A stretch of DNA of 64,000 nt from a virus, in IMG/VR virus record IMGVR_UViG_3300029258_003681; one strand, 5' to 3'. This document shows, piece after piece, positions 33,172 to 44,325 of the stretch (the stretch's first letter is position 1; every line of letters begins with the position of its first letter). The position numbers were made by a program, and so were the translations under genes. Under the pieces are notes generated by a model that ran no database searches, was not told where the DNA came from, and saw only the letters and a list, made by a program, of their open reading frames with translations.

Positions 33172-34189
33172 CAAATTCAAACGGATCAAAGCTCTGAAAT
33201 GCTTTAACCAGGTGGAGGAGATGCTGTACGCGGGATTCCCCGTGGCAGCAGTAGCAAGCTACATCCAAGTCAGGATGAACGAATACAAAGATGTGAAGCG
33301 CGGCTCCCTGATTGTTATGTTGAAGATGTTCAGGAAGACGTTGAGCGTGGATGGGTTGGTGCGTTCAAGCCTTCCTCGTGTATTCGTGGATGCGGAGAAG
33401 AAATTCGCGAACAAAATGAATGAGCTGGAGCGCTTGGAAGATCAGTATTTGCTGGACCAGTATCGGATGGATGTCCTTCATGGGGAGGAGCGCATGACGG
33501 GGGCGATTAATCCTCAAGTGGATAAGATCGGCAAGTCGATGCGTGATACTGTTGTAAAGATGCACAATATCAAGATGGATCTGGGGCTTGTTGGCTCTCG
33601 GGATCTGGGGACGATTACTGTGTCGGCGGAGCGTATTGAGTACATCAAAAATAAATATGGCGAGGGCGCTGCGAAGGCGTTTGCCGATCCTGTTTCTAGG
33701 GGCCGTGTGTTGGCTGCACTTAACGCTATCAGGCGTGCGGGTAATTTGCGCGATAAAGATGGGCAACCGTTGGAGCTTACACAGCACATGAAATTGTCTG
33801 ATGAGGAGCGTGAAAAAATAGTAGATGTCGAATATGAGGTTACGGATGGCGATGATGTGCCCGACGATGATGGGGAGGGTGAAGGGTCAGCGGGTGACGG
33901 AGGGCCACCCGAGCCGCCTTTTGTGCCGCGTGGTGACGATTTGAATGAAGCCGAAGGCGAGGAGGATTATGACGAACGTGTAGAAGCTTTGTCGCCAGAT
34001 CTTGAGCCAGGGGACGATGCTGTTCCTCCTCCAGTGAAGGATCCGCGTGTTGAGCCTGTGGAGATGGCTCCTGATCATGGGCGGATTGCGCCGAACTTGC
34101 CTCCTGGTCCAATGAAGCCAGGGATTCGTGCCAATGTTGAGAGTCGTATGACTACGAAGGTTCCGCCTAAGAAGGACAGTAAAGAGTGA
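33152..34189 (+). CDS. Probable terminase small subunit
   Basis: Directly upstream of and overlapping TerL; helical with acidic/Pro-rich tail. Positional inference only. Confidence 0.5.
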   Translation: MAERAIDKFKRIKALKCFNQVEEMLYAGFPVAAVASYIQVRMNEYKDVKRGSLIVMLKMFRKTLSVDGLVRSSLPRVFVDAEKKFANKMNELERLEDQYLLDQYRMDVLHGEERMTGAINPQVDKIGKSMRDTVVKMHNIKMDLGLVGSRDLGTITVSAERIEYIKNKYGEGAAKAFADPVSRGRVLAALNAIRRAGNLRDKDGQPLELTQHMKLSDEEREKIVDVEYEVTDGDDVPDDDGEGEGSAGDGGPPEPPFVPRGDDLNEAEGEEDYDERVEALSPDLEPGDDAVPPPVKDPRVEPVEMAPDHGRIAPNLPPGPMKPGIRANVESRMTTKVPPKKDSKE

Positions 34190-36237
34190 TTATCACCAAC
34201 AAGCACGGGCGTAAAAAATCCATTGTTACGCCTGACGAGATTGATATGCGTGCTGGTGAGATTGTCTCTACTTTATCTGAAGCAGAACAGGAATTGTTTT
34301 TCGGGATGATTGACGGCGATGCTGAGGAGCAGATGTCAGTTACCGAGACGATGATGGAGCATCGCTATCACACGCAGCCTGTGTCGATGGAGCAATTCTT
34401 GGAGGATCCCTACTACCTTGGGGAGTCGTGCTCGACGTTGTATCCAGAGTTGCGGAAGGATCTGATTGATCTTTTTGACTATCCATATCGCGAGGTGGTG
34501 TTGACAGGCGGCATTGGCGTGGGCAAGACCTTCGTTCTTTCGATTGCCTTGTGCCGCGTGTTGTACGAGTTGTCATGCCTTGTGGATCCGCAGCGGACGT
34601 TTGGTCTGTCGTCGGGCACCGAGATGGTGATTCCGCTCATTTCGAAAAACTTGATTCTTGCACGTGAGGTGATGAAGACGGCGGTGGATGACAAGATCCG
34701 CGAGTCGGTTTATTTTATGGAGAAATTCGCTCCGAAGATCTCAAAAGAGAACACGGTTTTTCCTAACAATATTCGTGTAATTATAGGGTCGTACGGGTCG
34801 GAGCGTATATTGGGATCGAATGTGTTTGCGGTGGGGTTGGATGAGACGAACTTTCCGCCTACGCGTAAGTCTCAGCAGATCACTACAGCGATTGGGCAAC
34901 GCAAGACGGTTGCGCATTTCGATCCCGTTGAGAAGGTGTATCGAAGCCTGTTGCGTCGTATCAAATCCAGATTTCAGAAGGCTGGAGGGGATTTCCCTGG
35001 GATGGTGATCTTGGCGTCGTCGGCTGCGACGCTGGAGAGTTTTACTGAGCGCAAGATGAAGGAGAGCGCGAACGATCCCGAGGTGTTTGTGCGTGATCAT
35101 ACGCCGTGGACTGCCAAGCCTGAGACGGAGTTTTGCGGTGAGAAGTTCTGGGTTATCTGTTCAACATCGTCTATCCGTGCGCGAATCTTGGATGAAGACG
35201 AGTATGACATGGTCACCGATGATTACTTGCTGGAGAATGATGCATGGCTTATTGACGTTCCAATTGAATTTTTGAACGATTTTGAAACGGATCTGGAGAA
35301 TGCTCTTCGAGATATTGCGGGTATTTCTACACAAGCAATTTCCGCGTTTATCCAGCGTGTTGACATGGTGGATAATTGTGCGGATGACAACTTGCCGCAT
35401 GCGTTTTCGCTGGGGGAATGGACGGCAGGCGGCCCTGGATCATTCAAGTGGAGGCAGCTGTGTAAGGAGTTCGAGCGCAAGCTTCCTGGGGGATTCACAG
35501 AGACGGCGTTCAGTCCTCGCATCAACCCGAAGACATTACGTTGGTGCCATGTGGATACATCAGTCTCGGGCGACTGCACGGGATTTGCTGTGGGGCATAT
35601 TGATCGTTGGGTGGAAGTTGTGCGTAGGGAGGGGGGCAACGAGCGGTACTTGGATGACGCGCCGTTTTACCATATGGACATTATTCTGCGGATCAATCCG
35701 CCGCCAGGCGAGCAGATATATTTGCCTGATATTCGGCGCCTTGTGTACGAACTCCAGGCACATGGTTACAACTTTATGGGGTTCAGTACGGATAAATATC
35801 AGTACGTGGAAATGCATCAACAGGTGAGGCGGAGGGGCATCCATTGTGAATTAATTTCGATGGACGAAAAAACTGATCCGTATGACGAATTGAAGCGTGC
35901 GGTGTACGAGGAACGCATACGCTATCATAGGTATGAGCCTTTTATTGAGGAGTTGAAGCTTCTGGAATATGATCGTCTTGTGGGTAAAATTGACCATCCC
36001 CAGGCTGGGTCAAAAGATGTTAGTGACGCCGTCGCTGGGGTAGTGTATGGTTTATTACAGGGTTCAGCGCGCTTGCCAATTGGCGTCGGAGCTGATACTC
36101 ATAAGAGGAAGAGGCATGAACATGCGTGGGTGAGTCCTATGATTCCTGCATCGACGGTTGACATTGAAGAAGTTAGAGCGATGGCCGATGCGGCAACGGA
36201 TGATTCGGATTTCATGCCTATTTTGTTTGGAGACTAA
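34186..36237 (+). CDS. terL: Terminase large subunit
   Basis: VVLTGGIGVGKT (Walker A), VGLDE (Walker B), ILASS, HVDTS..GD..G and KDVSDAVAG (nuclease). Confidence 0.9.
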   Translation: MIITNKHGRKKSIVTPDEIDMRAGEIVSTLSEAEQELFFGMIDGDAEEQMSVTETMMEHRYHTQPVSMEQFLEDPYYLGESCSTLYPELRKDLIDLFDYPYREVVLTGGIGVGKTFVLSIALCRVLYELSCLVDPQRTFGLSSGTEMVIPLISKNLILAREVMKTAVDDKIRESVYFMEKFAPKISKENTVFPNNIRVIIGSYGSERILGSNVFAVGLDETNFPPTRKSQQITTAIGQRKTVAHFDPVEKVYRSLLRRIKSRFQKAGGDFPGMVILASSAATLESFTERKMKESANDPEVFVRDHTPWTAKPETEFCGEKFWVICSTSSIRARILDEDEYDMVTDDYLLENDAWLIDVPIEFLNDFETDLENALRDIAGISTQAISAFIQRVDMVDNCADDNLPHAFSLGEWTAGGPGSFKWRQLCKEFERKLPGGFTETAFSPRINPKTLRWCHVDTSVSGDCTGFAVGHIDRWVEVVRREGGNERYLDDAPFYHMDIILRINPPPGEQIYLPDIRRLVYELQAHGYNFMGFSTDKYQYVEMHQQVRRRGIHCELISMDEKTDPYDELKRAVYEERIRYHRYEPFIEELKLLEYDRLVGKIDHPQAGSKDVSDAVAGVVYGLLQGSARLPIGVGADTHKRKRHEHAWVSPMIPASTVDIEEVRAMADAATDDSDFMPILFGD

Positions 36238-36240
36238 CGC

Positions 36241-38934
36241 ATGGCATGGCGTGACTGGATAAAGACATATCTGAAACGCGACAAAGAGACCAAGGTCGCG
36301 GATGAATCTCGTGGCGTCTCTATCGGTACCCCACCGACGACGGCGGCGGGTGCCTCGATGGAGACGCATGGGAGCGGCTCTTCGATCCTGGGCGAGATGC
36401 TCGCGGTCGACACCGATCTTATGCGGCGGTACGCGGATTACGAAAACATGGACGACTACGCGGAGACGTGCCTCGGTGCGGATTCGCTTGTTTTCACTGT
36501 TGAGCGTGGGTGGGTGCGGATTCAAGAGTTGGCTGAATCGCGGGAAGATTTCCATGTTTTGGCCTACGATCGAGAACTCAGATCTTTGGTGCCTGCCAGG
36601 GGGTGTGACGCGAGGATGACGGGGAGACGTGGGCATTCTAAGCCCATGGTGCGTGTAGTTCTTGATGATGGCAGGGAAGTGCGTTGCACAGCAGACCATC
36701 TTTTCATGAGGAAGGATGGGTCCTGGGTGAAAGCTGCTGACTTATTGTGTGGGGATCGCTTGATGCCAGGGGTTGTGCGGATGCGGAGTTTAAATTCTGC
36801 TGAGAATCAACCGTACTGGCAAGTGCATCAGCCTCATTCGGATTCTCAGATTGAGGGGAGGCGCCAGGATCGCCAGCAGAGGTGGGTGTGGGTACATCGT
36901 CTTGTGGTCGAGTATATTAATGGGGATATTGACGCTCCTCATGTTCATCACAAAGATGGAAACCCGCTCAACAATGCGCCAGGTAATCTTGAGGGCTTGA
37001 GTTTGTCGGAGCATGCCCATCGTCATATTGCGGGGATTGACAACAGTGAGCATTTTCCTGAGTGGACTGATGATCGTAGGGCAGAAATGGCTCTCCGTAT
37101 GCAGGGGAATGCGTATAGGCGTGGGGCTGTAATGAGCGACCATGCTCGCCGCAAAATATCAGATGCACATACTGGGCGGTCCAAGAGCGAGGAGTGGAAA
37201 AAGAGGATCGGTTTGGCGCAACCGAACCGTATCGATTTGAGACAAAAAGATGTAGAGGCCGCTCTTGAGTCTGGTGGAAGCGTGGCTGGTGCTGCGAGGA
37301 TTCTTGGGGTTTCTTGGAGCAAGGCGAAGCGCGCAGCTGTCGAATATGATTTGCTGGCTGATGGGGGGAATCATCGTGTGATGTCGGTGGAGCGTGTTGC
37401 TGGTGGCGAGCCGGTTTATGATCTTACCGTTCCAGGTTATTCGAATTTCGTGTGTAATGGAGTCGTGGTCCACAATTCGGCGGCTCTGGATATTTACGCG
37501 GACGACGCCACGATTCCCGACAGTGTTCATGGTAAGACGATCTGGGGGACATCTCGTGATCGTGTGATTCGTGACATCATCGACGATTGCCTCCATCGGC
37601 GTTTGCGTCTTGAGGAAGATATCTGGGTTGCGGTGCGTACGCTGTGCAAGTACGGCAACTGCTTCGCTGAGATTCTTGTTAATGAGATTGGTGTAGTTGG
37701 TCTGAATTGGCTCCCTGTTCCTACGATGCGTCGTATTGTGGACGAGAAGGGGGCTTTGATTGGTTTTGTGCAGGATACCACGGGCACATTTGGGTTTGAT
37801 TATAAAGCCGTGGTTGCCGCGATGAAGAAGAGCCGCCTCCCTGACGTTGAGGAAGAGGGTGGCAAGAATAAGCTCATCTTTTTCCGATCCTGGGAGGTTG
37901 TGCATTGGCGCCTCCGTTCGAAGATGATGCGGGCGCAGTATGGCTACAGCGTGTTGGATTCAGCGCGGTGGGTTTGGAAGCGCTTGCAGATGATGGAAGA
38001 CACTGCGTTGGTTCAGAAGCTTACGCGGGCGCCTGGGCGATACGCATTTTATGTTGACACAGGAGATCTTCCGCCGAGGGAAGCGATGGCGCTGGTCAAG
38101 AAGGTGAAGCGCGCCTACAAGAAGAAGAAATTCGTTGATCCTGCGACGGGTCAGCTTGATTTCAAATACAATCCGCTGTCGCCCCACGAGGATTTCTTTA
38201 TTCCTACGCGGGGTGGCAAAGAGAGCACGCGGATTGATGTTGTGTCTGGGCCTGATGTCCAGATGATGGACGATGTCGAGTACTTCCTGCGTAAATTGAT
38301 TGCGGCCATCAAGATTCCTCGGAGCTATCTGGGGCTGGGTGAGGCAGCCGAGGAGACTTCGAAGTCATTGGCCGAGGCTGACGTTCGATTCGCGCGCGCG
38401 TGCATGCGTATTCAGCGCGAATTCATCATGGGCGTACGGAAGATAATCCGTCTGCATATGGCGGCGCTGAACATTGATCCCGACTCGGTTGATTGGAAGA
38501 TCAAGATGTCTGTGCCGAGTGCGATCTTTGAGATGCAGCAGGTTGAGCTGATGAATGCTCAGGCTGCGCTGGCGTCGTCCATGGCCGAATGGGCGAGCAA
38601 GCCGTGGATCTTGCAGCACATCTTCCATTTCACCGAGGACGACTCGGCATTTATATGGCGTGAGAAGACTGAAGAAAACGACGAGACGGCGAAGAAGGAT
38701 GCGGGTACCCAGGCGGACATTATGCGGATGTATCCTGAATTGCAGGAGTTGCCTCCTGTGGGTGATGAGGGTGCTGTTGCCGAGTCGCAGATGGGTGCTG
38801 AGTTGATTGGTTTGAAGAAGGTGCTTCAAGAAACTAGTCAAACGTCTTCCGAAGTGGTAAAAAGATTCGAGAAGCTTGAGTCCCGAATGGTTAAATTGGA
38901 AAAAACCGCAAGGAGACGAGCTGTCTCGGGATAG
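36241..38934 (+). CDS. Portal protein (T4 gp20-like) containing an intein
   Basis: AALDIYADDAT, YGYSVLDSARWVWK.LQMMEDTALVQKLTRAPGRYAFYVDTG, EDFFIP.RGG, DDVEYFLRKL. Confidence 0.9.
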   Translation: MAWRDWIKTYLKRDKETKVADESRGVSIGTPPTTAAGASMETHGSGSSILGEMLAVDTDLMRRYADYENMDDYAETCLGADSLVFTVERGWVRIQELAESREDFHVLAYDRELRSLVPARGCDARMTGRRGHSKPMVRVVLDDGREVRCTADHLFMRKDGSWVKAADLLCGDRLMPGVVRMRSLNSAENQPYWQVHQPHSDSQIEGRRQDRQQRWVWVHRLVVEYINGDIDAPHVHHKDGNPLNNAPGNLEGLSLSEHAHRHIAGIDNSEHFPEWTDDRRAEMALRMQGNAYRRGAVMSDHARRKISDAHTGRSKSEEWKKRIGLAQPNRIDLRQKDVEAALESGGSVAGAARILGVSWSKAKRAAVEYDLLADGGNHRVMSVERVAGGEPVYDLTVPGYSNFVCNGVVVHNSAALDIYADDATIPDSVHGKTIWGTSRDRVIRDIIDDCLHRRLRLEEDIWVAVRTLCKYGNCFAEILVNEIGVVGLNWLPVPTMRRIVDEKGALIGFVQDTTGTFGFDYKAVVAAMKKSRLPDVEEEGGKNKLIFFRSWEVVHWRLRSKMMRAQYGYSVLDSARWVWKRLQMMEDTALVQKLTRAPGRYAFYVDTGDLPPREAMALVKKVKRAYKKKKFVDPATGQLDFKYNPLSPHEDFFIPTRGGKESTRIDVVSGPDVQMMDDVEYFLRKLIAAIKIPRSYLGLGEAAEETSKSLAEADVRFARACMRIQREFIMGVRKIIRLHMAALNIDPDSVDWKIKMSVPSAIFEMQQVELMNAQAALASSMAEWASKPWILQHIFHFTEDDSAFIWREKTEENDETAKKDAGTQADIMRMYPELQELPPVGDEGAVAESQMGAELIGLKKVLQETSQTSSEVVKRFEKLESRMVKLEKTARRRAVSG
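36469..37476 (+). mobile_element. Class 1 intein (336 aa) with HNH homing endonuclease
   Basis: T|CLGADS...CTADHLF (TxxH)...VYDLTV..YSNFVCNGVVVHN|S; central VHRLV...VHHKDGNPLNN..GNL. Confidence 0.92.
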
Positions 38935-38943
38935 GGGTCGATT

Positions 38944-39801
38944 ATGTATGTCCAGGGTTCTGTGATTGACAAAAAGTTCAAAGGCAGTCTGGAGCATCAG
39001 GCGCTTTTGGTAAAAGAGGCGATCCTTGAGCATTTTGGCGATTCGCCTGTGCGGATTCTCGCTACTCATCCCAAGCATGCGTACGCGGTGGACGCGGACG
39101 GTCAGATGCTGAAGGTGACCTACAAGACTGAGAAGGGTGTTGTTGGCGAGGTCAAGGCCAAACCGACGAAGGAAATCCCTGTCATTGAAGATGAGGATAT
39201 TCCTCGTTTTGTTGCAGGGCAGTTGCATGCGATGACCGAGGCTGCTCTCAAAGGCAAGGATGTGCCGCGAACTCAAGTTCGCGAGGTGACCCAGCTCTTG
39301 ACCAGGGACGAGGACTATTGGACGTCGGATATTCTGGAAAAGATCAACGAGGCTGTGGATGCGGCCGAGTGGTTTGGGATGTACGAGGCTAACCAGGAGC
39401 AGATTCGTACCACGTTGTACGGAAAAATCCGCGAGATTGAGAGCCCTTTCCCCACCACTAAATTTGCGAAAATTGCACCATCTAAGCTGTCGAAATTCGA
39501 AGATGAGTTGCGTGAAGCGTTGAATCTCGTTGCCAACTTGGTAACAGAGATGGTTGACGAATGCTCTCAGATGGTGTTTGATCAGGATCAGGATGAATTT
39601 TTCTGTGCTATCTGTGAATCGTTGAAAGTTGAAGCGCAAGCCATAGGTGGTTTGCTCGGCAAGGCCGAAAAGTTGATGCGACCCATGGATATTGGGCGCA
39701 TGGCGGAAGCACATGATAGGCTTGCTGAACGAGCAAAAACCATGGCTGTTGTGACCGCGTACATGAGAACCCGATCGCAACCCAACGACAACGAGGAGTA
39801 G
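38944..39801 (+). CDS. Head-module hypothetical protein
   Basis: Lies between portal and protease; helical and acidic. Confidence 0.7.
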   Translation: MYVQGSVIDKKFKGSLEHQALLVKEAILEHFGDSPVRILATHPKHAYAVDADGQMLKVTYKTEKGVVGEVKAKPTKEIPVIEDEDIPRFVAGQLHAMTEAALKGKDVPRTQVREVTQLLTRDEDYWTSDILEKINEAVDAAEWFGMYEANQEQIRTTLYGKIREIESPFPTTKFAKIAPSKLSKFEDELREALNLVANLVTEMVDECSQMVFDQDQDEFFCAICESLKVEAQAIGGLLGKAEKLMRPMDIGRMAEAHDRLAERAKTMAVVTAYMRTRSQPNDNEE

Positions 39802-39805
39802 AAAA

Positions 39806-40819
39806 ATGGGAAAACGAGCAATCCACACTTCTCTCGAAGAGGATCTTCAGAATCTTGGACTGCCAAGTTTCAACATGGCCGAGCAGGCTGCGTTGGGTGG
39901 CGTTCCTCTGACCGAGGAGAAGGACAAAGATGGTAGTGTCGCCGAGGGTGACGACGATCCCACATGCCCGAAGTGCAAAGCCAAGATGGAAGAGGGCAAA
40001 TGCACGAAGTGCGATCATGTAATGGAGTCCAAGGACGAAGATGTCGATAGCACCAATGCCGAGGATTCCGAAGGTGATGATCCCCTGGAGGGCGAGGTCG
40101 TCAACGAGGAGTTGTTCTCTGCGATTATGGAGCTGCCGTTCGAGGGGCTTCAGGCCGAGGATATCGAGGAGATTCTAGAGAAGCTTGCGGAGAAAAAGCT
40201 TCCCGAGGATTCCTCTGAAGAACTCAAAGAGCGTGCCAATGAGGTCGTGGACTTCCTGCTGGCCGAGGTTGCCGCGAAAGTCACGCGCCGACACAAGGCA
40301 GGCAAGATGAGCGCGAAGAAGTCCTTCCAGTGTCCTCCTGGAACACGGCGTGTTGGTAAGACCCGCAAGTGTGAAAAAGCTGCGAAGGTTGCCGGTGGCA
40401 AAGGCAAGCTTATGAAGGAGAAGCGCAAGAAAGTCAGATGGGGCAAGAGTGGCCTGGGTGCGAAATCCCAGCGCAAGTCTGCCCGCATAGCGAAGCGTCG
40501 AGAAGATGTCGATTCTCCATTCGCGATGGAGCTGGCTGGGTTGCTGGAAGACAACCAGACGGAGGCGATCACGGTACGTGACGATCTCCTTGATCGTGTC
40601 GGCAACATCATGGAAATGCTCGCTGAGGAATTCGCAGATGAGGCTGTGACGCGGGTTCTGGAAGAGGCTTACGAGCCGATCGCGGCATCCTGGGATGCGG
40701 GGCGTCTGGACGAGGACGTCATGGACGAGGACGAGTTTATTGCTGAAATCAAGCCGGTTCTTACCCTGATCCACAAGTCGCTGGAAAAAATCGGGGCTGA
40801 GGAAGAACTGGGAAACTGA
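39806..40819 (+). CDS. Probable prohead core/scaffold protein
   Basis: Acidic with an internal highly basic block; ends CTG GGA AAC TGA. Confidence 0.65.
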   Translation: MGKRAIHTSLEEDLQNLGLPSFNMAEQAALGGVPLTEEKDKDGSVAEGDDDPTCPKCKAKMEEGKCTKCDHVMESKDEDVDSTNAEDSEGDDPLEGEVVNEELFSAIMELPFEGLQAEDIEEILEKLAEKKLPEDSSEELKERANEVVDFLLAEVAAKVTRRHKAGKMSAKKSFQCPPGTRRVGKTRKCEKAAKVAGGKGKLMKEKRKKVRWGKSGLGAKSQRKSARIAKRREDVDSPFAMELAGLLEDNQTEAITVRDDLLDRVGNIMEMLAEEFADEAVTRVLEEAYEPIAASWDAGRLDEDVMDEDEFIAEIKPVLTLIHKSLEKIGAEEELGN

Positions 40820-41037
40820 CGAGCCGCCTCGGCGAGGCGAAATGGCGACGCCGTTTAGGGACATCGTCGGGGCGCAAGGAGCTGGTAGGGTTTGAGTCGC
40901 TCAAAAAAGCTGCTCGGGGTGATGGGAAAAAGACGGATAGACGAGTCTCCCCTGAAGCCAAGAGGAAACTCGACAGGAACCCACTTGCACGAACATCGTT
41001 CCGGCGGTGGCGTGGAAAAACTGGCAAGAGAGGGTGA
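40810..41037 (+). other. Candidate -1 frameshift site and extension frame
   Basis: G_GGA_AAC heptamer at 40810..40816, hairpin CGCCTC-GGC-GAGGCG 8 nt downstream, -1 frame open to TGA at 41035 with no ATG/GTG. Confidence 0.7.
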
Positions 41038-41041
41038 TGAA

Positions 41042-42661
41042 ATGCCGAATTTGCTGATTGAATCAAGTCCCGTCCATCTTACGCTGACAGAAGGCGCGGG
41101 TGGAAAAACGATAGCTCGTGGCGAGTTCGGGCGTGTTGGCGTGCCGACTCAGAATGGGCGTATTTATCCCGAAGAGTTGATGATGCGCGAGATCAAGAGG
41201 CTCTCGGAAGATATTAGCAAGCGCAGAATCCTGGGGGAGCTGGACCATCCGACCGATGGTAAGACTTCTCTGAAGCGCGTCTCCCATGTGATCACTGGGC
41301 TCAAAATCAAGGACGGTATTGTCGTTGGGGAGGCTGAGATTCTCAACACGCCCGAGGGTAAAACCTTGAAGGCGCTGATCGAGGCGAACGTACAGATCGG
41401 AATCTCCTCACGGGGATTTGGGTCTACGCGGCCATCGGAGGATCCGAAGATTGAGGGCGAAGTCGTACAGGGTGATTTCGTCTTGAAGACCTGGGACTTT
41501 GTTGCGGACCCCGCGATGAAGACTGCGGTGCCTGGCATTTTCACTGAGGATGTCGATGAGAATCAGCCCGACGTGGCCCAGCTGTTCCTGGACGAGTTTC
41601 CTGAGATTGCTGCTTCCTTGCAGGAAGATGCGGTTACCAAGGCGAAGCTCAAGGTCAACAAGGGTGTCGATGAGGCGGTTGCCGAGGCCGAGTCCCGCGT
41701 GCGCGAGGAGATGACTGAGGCGTTTGAGAAGAAGTTCGCTGGTGCTTTGCTAGAGACGAAGGAGACGATTGCCGAGGAGCTGCGCGAGGAGTTTGCGGCT
41801 GATCCTGACATTGGGGGTGCGAAGGCGGTGCTGGCTGCTGTGTGGGATATGGTTGCACCGTTTCAGGCGACGCCAGATGAGAAGGCAGCGTCTGACGCGG
41901 TCAAGGCCAGGGAGCTGGAGGTTTCCGAGGCCAAAGAGTCGGCCAGGGAGAGCGAGGAGCGTGCGGTCCGTGCTGAGTGTATGGAGTACATTGAGCGCGA
42001 GATCGGTGGTCATCCGATGGCTGAGTCGATTCGTAAATTGGTGTCAAAGCAGCAGTTTGCTGGCCTGGATGATGCCAAAGAGAAGCTCGCTGCGATTCTT
42101 GCGGATCTCCCCGAGCGGACGGACGAAGGAATGGTCTCCGAGGAGGAGGCCGAACTGAGAGAAGAAAACGCAGCAATGCGTGAAAAGGTGTCCCTCCTTA
42201 CGGAGAGGGTAGAAAAGCTGGATGCGAAACTGAAGAAAGCTGTAGAGGTAGGAATGGAGGCAGATTCTCAGCGACAGGATGCTGAGAGCCGCGTGGAAGA
42301 GGCCGAAAAAGAGAGAGACAACGCCCTGGAAGAAGCGACAAATGCAGAGGCGAAGCTCGAACTTGAGGTCTACAAACACGATAAGGTTGTGGGATTGTCA
42401 AATGGTAGAGAGTTGCTTGGTCTCATGGAGGATATAACTTCACGGGCCGCAGTTGACAGGTTGGTGACGAAGGATGGAGTCAAGGATGTCTCTGAGCGGC
42501 GACTCGCGGATGCGCGTAAGAGTTTACAGCGTGGCGTGGGCGAGCGGCAGGAGAAAGAACAGCTGAATGAGGGTGTCAGAGCTTCGAGGAGTCCCAAAAA
42601 GGATGATCTCGGGAATGACATGGGTCTCATGAAGCGATTGGCGGGTGTCTCATTAGAGTAG
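41042..42661 (+). CDS. Prohead protease (T4 gp21-like) fused to coiled-coil scaffold region
   Basis: NGRIYP, LGELDHP, VSHVIT, LNTPEGK, GISSRGFGS, WDFVADP. Confidence 0.9.
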   Translation: MPNLLIESSPVHLTLTEGAGGKTIARGEFGRVGVPTQNGRIYPEELMMREIKRLSEDISKRRILGELDHPTDGKTSLKRVSHVITGLKIKDGIVVGEAEILNTPEGKTLKALIEANVQIGISSRGFGSTRPSEDPKIEGEVVQGDFVLKTWDFVADPAMKTAVPGIFTEDVDENQPDVAQLFLDEFPEIAASLQEDAVTKAKLKVNKGVDEAVAEAESRVREEMTEAFEKKFAGALLETKETIAEELREEFAADPDIGGAKAVLAAVWDMVAPFQATPDEKAASDAVKARELEVSEAKESARESEERAVRAECMEYIEREIGGHPMAESIRKLVSKQQFAGLDDAKEKLAAILADLPERTDEGMVSEEEAELREENAAMREKVSLLTERVEKLDAKLKKAVEVGMEADSQRQDAESRVEEAEKERDNALEEATNAEAKLELEVYKHDKVVGLSNGRELLGLMEDITSRAAVDRLVTKDGVKDVSERRLADARKSLQRGVGERQEKEQLNEGVRASRSPKKDDLGNDMGLMKRLAGVSLE

Positions 42662-42690: not shown

Positions 42691-44325
42691 ATGGGCAACG
42701 AAAGTACAGAAGCCAGGGCTCTCTTGGAGCAAGCTGGTCCGAAGACAATCCACGACAATAGCTATGCCAGCGCTTGTGTGAGCAAGTGGGGCGAGTTACT
42801 GGAAGGTATTCCTGTAGAGCATGATCGTGGCTACACCAAAAAAGCAACGGCGATTCTTCTGGAAAACGAGATGGAGCACATCAAGTCTTTCCATGAGGAT
42901 ACTCTGAGCACCAATGCGGGTTCGTTCACGAAGTACATCTTCCCGATCCTGCGGAGGGTGTTCCCGAACCTGATCGCCAACCAACTCGTCTCGGTTCAGC
43001 CGATGACGGCGCCGGTAGGAGGCATCTTCTACTACGAGAAAAAGTACGATGATCGCAAGGGTACGAAACTACCCCAGTCCGCGATCACCAACACCCCGAC
43101 AGACGCGAACTACGACGGTGAGCTGGACGCTGGTGACAACATCAACCAGAACTTCGCCAAGTACTACAGCTCGGAGTTCATCGACTACGACGCGATCTGC
43201 ACGGACACGGGTGTAGCGACTTCTGGTGCGATCACGAACGCGTCGGCCAATTCTCGCGTTCCCGAGTGGAGCCCAATTCGCGCGCCTGCGACTGCTGGTC
43301 AGCGCACTTTCTACGTGCGTGTGTACTACCGCATGTTGGACGCTGACGCTGCGAGCGCCCCGACCGAGGTCATGGCCGAGCTGGACCCGACTGGTGCCAC
43401 TACCAACCTGGTCGACAACACGGCGAACACCAACACCGTCGGGACCTTCAACGTGACCACAGGTGCATGGTCGGTTAATGCGGCTGGTTCCGCTGGTACC
43501 AACAGCCCCTTCGCCAACAACACAGTCATCTATGTCCAGTACTTCGTGAACTGGGAGCTGGTGGGTTACACCACGGGTGCCGAGATCCCGAGCATCAGCC
43601 TGGACATCGCCCTTCACACCGTGCAGGCCGAGAGCCGCAAGCTCAAGGCTCGCTGGACGGTAGAAGCGGTCGATGATCTCCGTGCGCTCCATGGCATGGA
43701 TGCCGAGGCCGAGCTGGTCAGCACCTTCTCGAACGAGGTGATGCTGGAAGTGGATCGTGAGATTATCGGTGATCTCATCAACGGTGCGGGGCATTCGATT
43801 CCTTACGCCTACGCCCCAGGCATCCCTGGTGAGCTGGAGAGCATCCGTCGGCTGATCACCCAGATCAGCGCGATGTCGGCTGAGATTCACAGGACTTCTG
43901 GCAGGGCTCCTGCCAACTTCCTGGTTGTGCCTCCAGGCATCGGTGGGCTCCTCGACCAGCTGTCGACTCACGGCGACTACGCCTCGATCGAGCAGAACGT
44001 CCAGGCGACGAGCTACGGCCCTGTGACTGCCAACTACGGCATCGCAAGGATCGGTACGCTGCTCCGCAAGTACGCGGTCTACCAAGATCCGTACATGCCC
44101 TCCACGCAGATTCTGGTGGGCCTCAAGGGGAACAGCTTCATCGATGCGGGCTATGTGTATGCGCCATATGTGCCGCTGCAAGTCACCCCGACTTTCCTCG
44201 ATCCCAACGACTTCACGTTCCGCAAGGGCGTGAGGACTCGGTACGCGACACGCATGCTGCGTCCCGAGTACTATGGCGTTATCAACGTCACTGGTCTGCC
44301 CGTAGTCACTACGTCCTTGCCATAG
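42691..44325 (+). CDS. Major capsid protein (T4 gp23-like)
   Basis: RRVFPNLIANQLVSVQPMTAP, SRKLKARWT.EA..DLRALHG.DAEAEL, EVDREII, AGYVYAPYVPL, TRYA; strong C-ending codon bias. Confidence 0.95.
   Translation: MGNESTEARALLEQAGPKTIHDNSYASACVSKWGELLEGIPVEHDRGYTKKATAILLENEMEHIKSFHEDTLSTNAGSFTKYIFPILRRVFPNLIANQLVSVQPMTAPVGGIFYYEKKYDDRKGTKLPQSAITNTPTDANYDGELDAGDNINQNFAKYYSSEFIDYDAICTDTGVATSGAITNASANSRVPEWSPIRAPATAGQRTFYVRVYYRMLDADAASAPTEVMAELDPTGATTNLVDNTANTNTVGTFNVTTGAWSVNAAGSAGTNSPFANNTVIYVQYFVNWELVGYTTGAEIPSISLDIALHTVQAESRKLKARWTVEAVDDLRALHGMDAEAELVSTFSNEVMLEVDREIIGDLINGAGHSIPYAYAPGIPGELESIRRLITQISAMSAEIHRTSGRAPANFLVVPPGIGGLLDQLSTHGDYASIEQNVQATSYGPVTANYGIARIGTLLRKYAVYQDPYMPSTQILVGLKGNSFIDAGYVYAPYVPLQVTPTFLDPNDFTFRKGVRTRYATRMLRPEYYGVINVTGLPVVTTSLP

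Follow-up and report, generated by a model that had tools for sequence, protein, structure and literature searches.

The textbook form of −1 ribosomal frameshifting, which is also the mechanism that we propose for the locus described here, consists of a slippery heptamer, a spacer and a stem-loop. In gene 10A/10B of phages T7 and T3, a −1 shift near the end of a head gene leads to a minor C-terminally extended form, which co-assembles with the major form. In tail chaperone genes (G/GT in lambda), the X_XXY_YYZ heptamer on which the −1 shift takes place is located close to the 3′ end of a gene from a structural module, and the shift gives two forms with a shared N-terminus in a fixed ratio. GGGAAAC and AAAAAAC interchange as −1 sites in the tail chaperone genes of phiCbK-like phages (gp93/94, PMC3556154), GGGAAAC stands directly 5′ of a TGA codon in gp18/19 of Burkholderia phage KL1 (PMC3483164), and both G_GGA_AAC and A_AAA_AAC are −1 sites in haloarchaeal viruses (PMC5009743). 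Frameshift-derived capsid extensions have been reviewed in the same source, according to which A_AAC slips less readily in the A site than A_AAG does in E. coli (PMC5009743).

As regards the prohead core, the proteins to be compared are the core and internal proteins of T4 (gp67, gp68, IPI-III, Alt). The T4 protease gp21 prefers the motif L/I-x-E. We know of no frameshift in the T4 core genes and, to our knowledge, no recoding site is known in the head-core module genes of T4-type heads. Our literature search for frameshifting in prohead-core genes returned nothing relevant, and neither a paper describing the present site nor an earlier recoding site in head-core module genes was found in it. 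Cleavage by proteases of the S77 family follows the Glu of x-X-E motifs (PMC5694885); the core proteins of T4 are cleaved by gp21, and its internal proteins bear short N-terminal targeting/cleavage peptides (PMC9958956).

The site studied lies in the T4-type head module of an uncultured phage, on the + strand of the window, by which we mean the whole 64,000-nucleotide stretch of viral DNA that was analysed. The features of the module and of the site are collected in Table 1. We conclude that a programmed −1 ribosomal frameshift very probably occurs at G_GGA_AAC near the end of the 337-aa gene, hereafter the body gene, and adds to its product a very basic C-terminal tail encoded in what gene callers leave as a gap. 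The initial annotation had read the site in this way, and the reading held up against the homologues: the heptamer is kept, the −1 frame is open and coding, and no homologue carries the tail in frame.

Table 1. Features of the T4-type head module and of the proposed frameshift site (window coordinates)
Feature	Position	Strand	Remark
Large terminase	34186-36237	+	
gp20-like portal, split by an HNH-endonuclease intein	36241-38934	+	Pfam: Intein_splicing and HNH_3 within Portal_T4
285-aa ORF	38944-39801	+	
0-frame body gene, 337 aa (P0001)	39806-40819	+	between the 285-aa ORF and the prohead protease
Slippery heptamer G_GGA_AAC	40810-40816	+	X_XXY_YYZ phase; GGA would be the P site, AAC the A site
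−1 extension, 73 codons + TGA	40816-41037	+	open frame, coding selection; tail very basic
0-frame stop TGA	40817-40819	+	directly 3′ of the heptamer; terminates the 337-aa product
Spacer, 8 nt	40817-40824	+	heptamer to stem
Stem-loop, ~21 bp	40825-40874	+	RNAalifold on 12 close relatives
Gap without called gene, 222 nt	between the 337-aa ORF and the protease ATG	+	
S77 (T4 gp21-like) prohead protease	41042-42661	+	C-terminal part long, acidic, coiled-coil
gp23-like major capsid protein	42691-44325	+	

The relatives have the same gene order, with the body gene in the head module, the portal on one side and the prohead protease on the other; in the window the ATG of the protease is located 4 nt past the stop codon of the tail. 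Several neighbouring genes have features of their own. Inteins are found in the portal or in a neighbouring gene of relatives, some with LAGLIDADG in place of HNH. The protease is a fusion in which an S77 domain (approximately the first 140–180 residues) is followed by about 350 acidic, coiled-coil-like residues, as though T4 gp21 and a gp22-type scaffold had been joined in a single gene, and this layout is common to all relatives (540–590 aa). The N-terminal ~60 residues of the gp23-like capsid protein (42691–42870) contain three L-L-E motifs, which are compatible with cleavage of a propeptide by a gp21-type protease. No tRNA genes were found in the window.

The locus resembles the described systems only in part. 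With lambda G/GT it shares a −1 site of the X_XXY_YYZ type near the end of a structural-module gene and, by prediction, two forms with a shared N-terminus in a fixed ratio, and its heptamers are the same as those of the phiCbK-like and KL1 tail chaperones. Unlike the G/GT pair, which precedes the tape measure gene, the body gene stands between portal and protease within the head module, has no sequence similarity to G/GT, and would be extended by a polybasic peptide of 61–82 aa rather than by a folded T domain. Since the module is wrong and similarity is absent, we do not regard it as a member of the G/GT family. The proposed minor extended form of a head protein recalls 10A/10B of T7 and T3; there, however, the major capsid protein is extended, at another slippery sequence, whereas here an accessory gene in the head module of a T4-type head would give a very basic product. 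As in the E. coli dnaX gene (gamma/tau), the heptamer is accompanied by a downstream stem-loop and possibly by an upstream Shine–Dalgarno (SD)-like element, but the shift in dnaX shortens the protein and its heptamer is A_AAA_AAG. Finally, the charged helical body protein, encoded between portal and protease, resembles the T4 core and internal proteins in its position and make-up, although no sequence or fold similarity to them could be detected.

To compare junctions, we assembled 75 loci, which after de-duplication gave 43 distinct related junctions with body identity down to 31%. Environmental collections supplied 8 viral contigs found via the body, 7 places for the most distant homologues, 1 genome-bin contig, and 69 loci found with a tail-only profile in viral and metagenome contigs; 25 body homologues had an identity of 32–64%. 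Queried with the DNA, with the body or with the tail, the GenBank phages gave no match, no cultured phage carrying this frameshift was found, and the nearest cultured phages have only 31–37% identity in the capsid protein.

The body gene ends with CTG GGA AAC TGA, as had been noted, and the heptamer is in the correct phase because its first G is the third base of the CTG codon. The in-phase G_GGA_AAC is present in 40/43 distinct junctions, and each of the other three has a variant of its own: A_AAA_AAC (1), G_GGA_AAT (1) and G_GAA_AAG (1). The last of these, beside the stop codon of a short 1.7-kb contig (L013), is not a canonical heptamer, so that a canonical in-phase slippery heptamer is kept in 42/43 junctions. 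The codon immediately 5′ may specify any of eight residues (L, S, E, M, P, R, Q, G), yet its third base is the one that the heptamer requires in 42/42 canonical junctions (G, or A for A_AAA_AAC). The P-site codon is GGA in 41/43 junctions, compared with 18% of Gly codons in these genes, and the A-site codon is AAC in 41/43, compared with a usage of 54%; the two codons farther upstream vary freely. Because synonymous sites between clades are nearly saturated (dS up to 1.6), the frozen bases of the heptamer indicate that selection acts at the nucleotide level rather than for a Gly-Asn dipeptide.

The position of the 0-frame stop varies, with 0 nt past the heptamer in 18 junctions, 3 nt in 23 and 12 nt in 2. 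At many loci the −1 frame opens just 3–12 nt 5′ of the heptamer, and the shortest overlap of the two frames is 13 nt. The frame change must therefore occur at the heptamer, given the short −1 opening upstream of it and the stop codon directly after it in 18 junctions. An SD-like purine stretch 5–7 nt upstream is enriched, with an anti-SD pairing energy of the upstream 16 nt of −5.8 kcal/mol against −3.7 kcal/mol in controls (p = 7e-8). It should be noted that, in contrast to dnaX, the distance is only 5–7 nt, and that coding rich in Gly, Glu and Asp may by itself account for the signal.

The stem-loop, which we take to be the stimulator of the shift, consists of a lower helix (40825–40837 with 40862–40874) and an upper helix (40838–40846 with 40850–40858). 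According to RNAalifold, 92.9% of cells are paired in the window's clade (12 sequences), and six pairs have compensatory changes; none of 500 shuffles (0/500) equalled the observed pairing, and sliding the partner strand reduced it to 37–50%. Three double changes are the window's own, AAA...UUU in place of GUG...CAC in the relatives. The window sequence alone also folds into this stem-loop (−27.1 kcal/mol, z = −2.5). The initial annotation had described here a 15-nt hairpin, CGCCTC-GGC-GAGGCG (40825–40839), 8 nt past the heptamer; this hairpin exists, but it makes up only the 5′ arm of the larger stem-loop. An alternative pairing or pseudoknot of 40830–40834 with 40849, suggested at the same time, was not borne out, as the conserved fold pairs 40830–40834 with 40865–40869.

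The tendency to form a stem at this distance is common to the family. Over the 55 nt past the heptamer, the 43 junctions have a mean folding energy of −19.7 kcal/mol, compared with −12.6 kcal/mol for 860 segments placed at random in these loci (p = 8.5e-15). Positions +8 to +14 belong to the 5′ arm of a stem with a probability of 0.93, against 0.52 at control positions of the same genes (p = 2.5e-24), while positions +1 to +5 are mostly unpaired family-wide (0.29 against 0.42 in controls). In every clade the stem begins 7–8 nt past the heptamer. The stems of different clades are unrelated in sequence, for example CCCCCT/AGGGGG, GGCCACC/GGTGGCC, CCGCTTATC/GGTAAGCGG and GCCCTC/GAGGGC, and they encode differing parts of the tail; their distance is fixed to the heptamer and not to the shifting stop. 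The stem arms also code for the conserved R-L-x-E and S-G-R, and pairing within the close clade could in part be a by-product of coding. Comparative sequence analysis shows the slippery site, the spacer with its stem, selection on the coding content of the −1 frame, and no other entry into that frame.

In the window, the −1 frame has a TGA at 40798–40800, after which no stop interrupts it from 40801 up to the TGA at 41035–41037, and it fills the gap before the protease as had been described; past its stop, the 0 frame meets two more, at 40856 and at 40886, and the +1 frame has one at 40893. The predicted trans-frame product has 337 + 73 = 410 aa with the junction ...EELGN-LTSR..., and its predicted tryptic junction peptide is IGAEEELGNLTSR. 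The tail of the window has a pI of 12 and contains 25 K+R; its residues 5–7, L-G-E, match a conserved L-x-E. Across the family the tails are 61–82 aa long with a pI of 10.5–12, and L-x-E or V-x-E occurs at tail residues 5–8 in 39/43 junctions; this motif partly coincides with the RNA stem.

Besides frameshifting, the tail could in principle be produced as a separate small gene, from a non-canonical start or by termination–reinitiation at the stop codon of the 337-aa gene. We consider this improbable, even though the CTG of the window (40816–40818) overlaps the TGA stop and gene callers at times call ORFs of 39–77 aa within the tail frame. The absence of ATG and GTG from the tail frame, reported earlier for the window, was confirmed and extends to TTG; all three codons are also absent in two relatives (L039 and L010), and elsewhere they are scattered over internal positions, with no start codon conserved, where initiation would remove conserved residues. 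In loci with a TAA stop the CTG becomes CTA, and nothing resembling a start codon lies near the stops located 3 or 12 nt farther, so termination–reinitiation does not fit. Moreover, reinitiation leaves unexplained both the frozen synonymous bases of the heptamer and a stem that tracks the heptamer rather than the stop.

Slippage of RNA polymerase, by which a share of the mRNAs would gain or lose one base and place the tail in frame, has the same outcome for the protein, and the single A_AAA_AAC variant does offer a run of six A. Transcriptional slippage needs homopolymers far longer than three G or three A, and 40/43 sites have just three G and three A in a row, which makes it unlikely; the conserved stem at a spacing of 7–8 nt is a hallmark of ribosomal shifting. 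We rate this explanation lower still than a separate gene. Slippage-prone homopolymers are reviewed in PMC5009743.

In a single contig, one base missing near 40816 through a sequencing or assembly error would look the same as a frameshift site, splitting an ordinary 410-aa gene. The identical frame change occurs, however, at the same heptamer in 43 distinct junctions, which were obtained from numerous independent samples with various assemblers. An in-frame tail in homologues, which according to the initial annotation would point to an indel, was absent: among 1.84 billion representative proteins there was no protein with body and tail in one frame. Our HMMER profile of the tail returned from this set 7 ORF calls of 43–77 aa, all starting inside the tail, and 1 weak match in a 795-aa protein (E 6e-4, 8 short stretches) that looks spurious, and a word search limited to longer proteins did not find the tail. 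Since the tail is never in frame with the body, an assembly indel is excluded for practical purposes, its residual probability being minimal, and the same result counts against a free-standing gene. That the gap is instead non-coding (a regulatory leader of the protease or a terminator) and open by chance is just as hard to credit, as a 222-nt stretch with a strong stem-loop and no called gene might suggest it but the substitution pattern already contradicts it, the frame is open throughout the family, and neither a terminator-like or promoter-like site nor an Rfam match was found in the gap.

The pattern of substitutions favours translation of exactly one frame, the one that the frameshift would open. 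It is open in 41/41 complete tails, compared with 0–19 of 41 for the other five frames. The dN/dS ratio is 0.08–0.18 in the −1 frame (dS 0.6–1.6) and exceeds 1 in the other two forward frames. In six sequences of the window's clade, 55/73 third codon positions are variable, against 21 first and 14 second positions. Both homologue comparisons that the initial annotation had proposed for this frame thus came out in favour of coding. The tail is also the better conserved part of the predicted product, with an identity of 84–92% where that of the body is 51–64%; even the most distant members can be aligned over it, and certain Ser, Arg, Thr and Ala residues are invariant. The fact that the basic tail is more conserved than the body to which it is attached suggests that it is probably important inside the head.

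Regarding the proteins themselves, the body is acidic and helical in its N- and C-terminal parts and contains a zinc ribbon (CxxC..CxxC) that varies, a central basic block and a conserved (L/I)-x-E at residues 10–12, which reads L-E-E in the window. Its N-terminal part is modular (alignment A5), the zinc ribbon being present in some members and absent in others, and an acidic helical module (DPLD..VN.ELFDAIM..) is doubled in two homologues (P0007 and P0008). No Pfam or PHROG family and no ESM Atlas match was found for the body. Its AlphaFold model is mostly helical (pLDDT 72, pTM 0.28), and Foldseek comparisons of it with BFVD and PDB yielded no hit with E < 0.2; homology of sequence or fold to gp67, gp68, gp22 or internal proteins was not found. 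The earlier label of "prohead core protein" is consistent with the portal–protease position and the composition but has no Pfam, PHROG or fold match behind it. From the position of the gene, the charged helical make-up and the (L/I)-x-E at residues 10–12, we infer that the body belongs to the prohead core or is an internal protein of the head. The N-terminal motif recalls the targeting/cleavage peptides of the T4 internal proteins (PMC9958956), and (L/I)-x-E occurs near the N-terminus of the body and again just past the junction.

For the tail, no Pfam or PHROGs match and no ESM Atlas neighbour was found, and its AlphaFold model is of low confidence and contains short helices only (pLDDT 64). 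The tail had been said to mirror the internal basic block of the body, but the likeness is one of composition only, and an origin by duplication of this block was rejected (hhalign probability 0.2%). The idea that the tail is a divergent form of bS21, a small basic ribosomal protein encoded in the head module of phage Mel-JY01, was likewise rejected (hhalign probability 0.2%, no Pfam match).

We propose the following sequence of events. With a ribosome at 40810–40816, tRNA-Gly would occupy the P site and tRNA-Asn the A site, while the stem-loop, 8 nt downstream of the heptamer, would stand at the mRNA entrance. Some ribosomes would slip in tandem by −1, from GGA AAC to GGG AAA, and resume decoding at CTG 40816; this fraction would yield the 410-aa protein, whose last 73 residues form the conserved, very basic tail. 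Unslipped ribosomes would stop at TGA 40817 and give the 337-aa form. If the body is indeed a prohead-core or internal head protein, the frameshift would set a fixed ratio of tailed to untailed protein in the prohead. The S77 protease may then cut after the L-x-E just past the junction, releasing a basic peptide of ~66 aa that could stay with the DNA or bind the acidic core.

As to the function of the tail, our best guess is that the protease frees it as a basic peptide inside the head; the core role and the release of the tail are so far unproven proposals, drawn from gene position and short motifs. A more specific and rather doubtful possibility is that the frameshift meters cargo: the acidic body would bring the tail into the prohead, the protease would free the ~66-aa peptide at L-x-E, and the peptide would either remain in the capsid, where it would neutralise or organise the packaged DNA, or be injected together with it. 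If this were true, the slip rate would set the number of basic peptides per head, and recoding would have a new use in phage head assembly.

The predicted frameshift adds a well-supported recoding site to the head-core module genes of T4-type heads. Gene callers leave a "gap" of ~200 nt at this place and miss the 410-aa product across a lineage of large environmental phages. With its interchangeable heptamers, re-invented stems and fixed spacing, the family forms a natural series for the study of frameshift stimulators. The textbook nature of the mechanism limits the surprise, and the lack of a cultured member limits the ease of testing.

Several further observations concern the relatives and the tail region. 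The Microcystis phage Mel-JY01 is organised differently, with tight packing and no analogue; in the head module of this cultured T4-type phage a bS21 gene (L086, 3119–3346) is annotated, flanked by the prohead protease and capsid genes. One AT-rich family member (L087, CAYUTF010000008.1, a 65-kb contig with a GC content of 37%) has the same G_GGA_AAC, stem and tail; its contig is binned in a MAG titled "uncultured archaeon", which could be a mis-binning or a clue to the host. Within the coding sequence of the tail, the 17 bases at 40936–40952 (GATAGACGAGTCTCCCC) are invariant in six sequences, third codon positions included, whereas outside this segment 40–65% of synonymous sites are changed in the same six sequences. 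This hints at an additional constraint at the nucleotide level, for example an RNA element or a signal that serves the protease gene.
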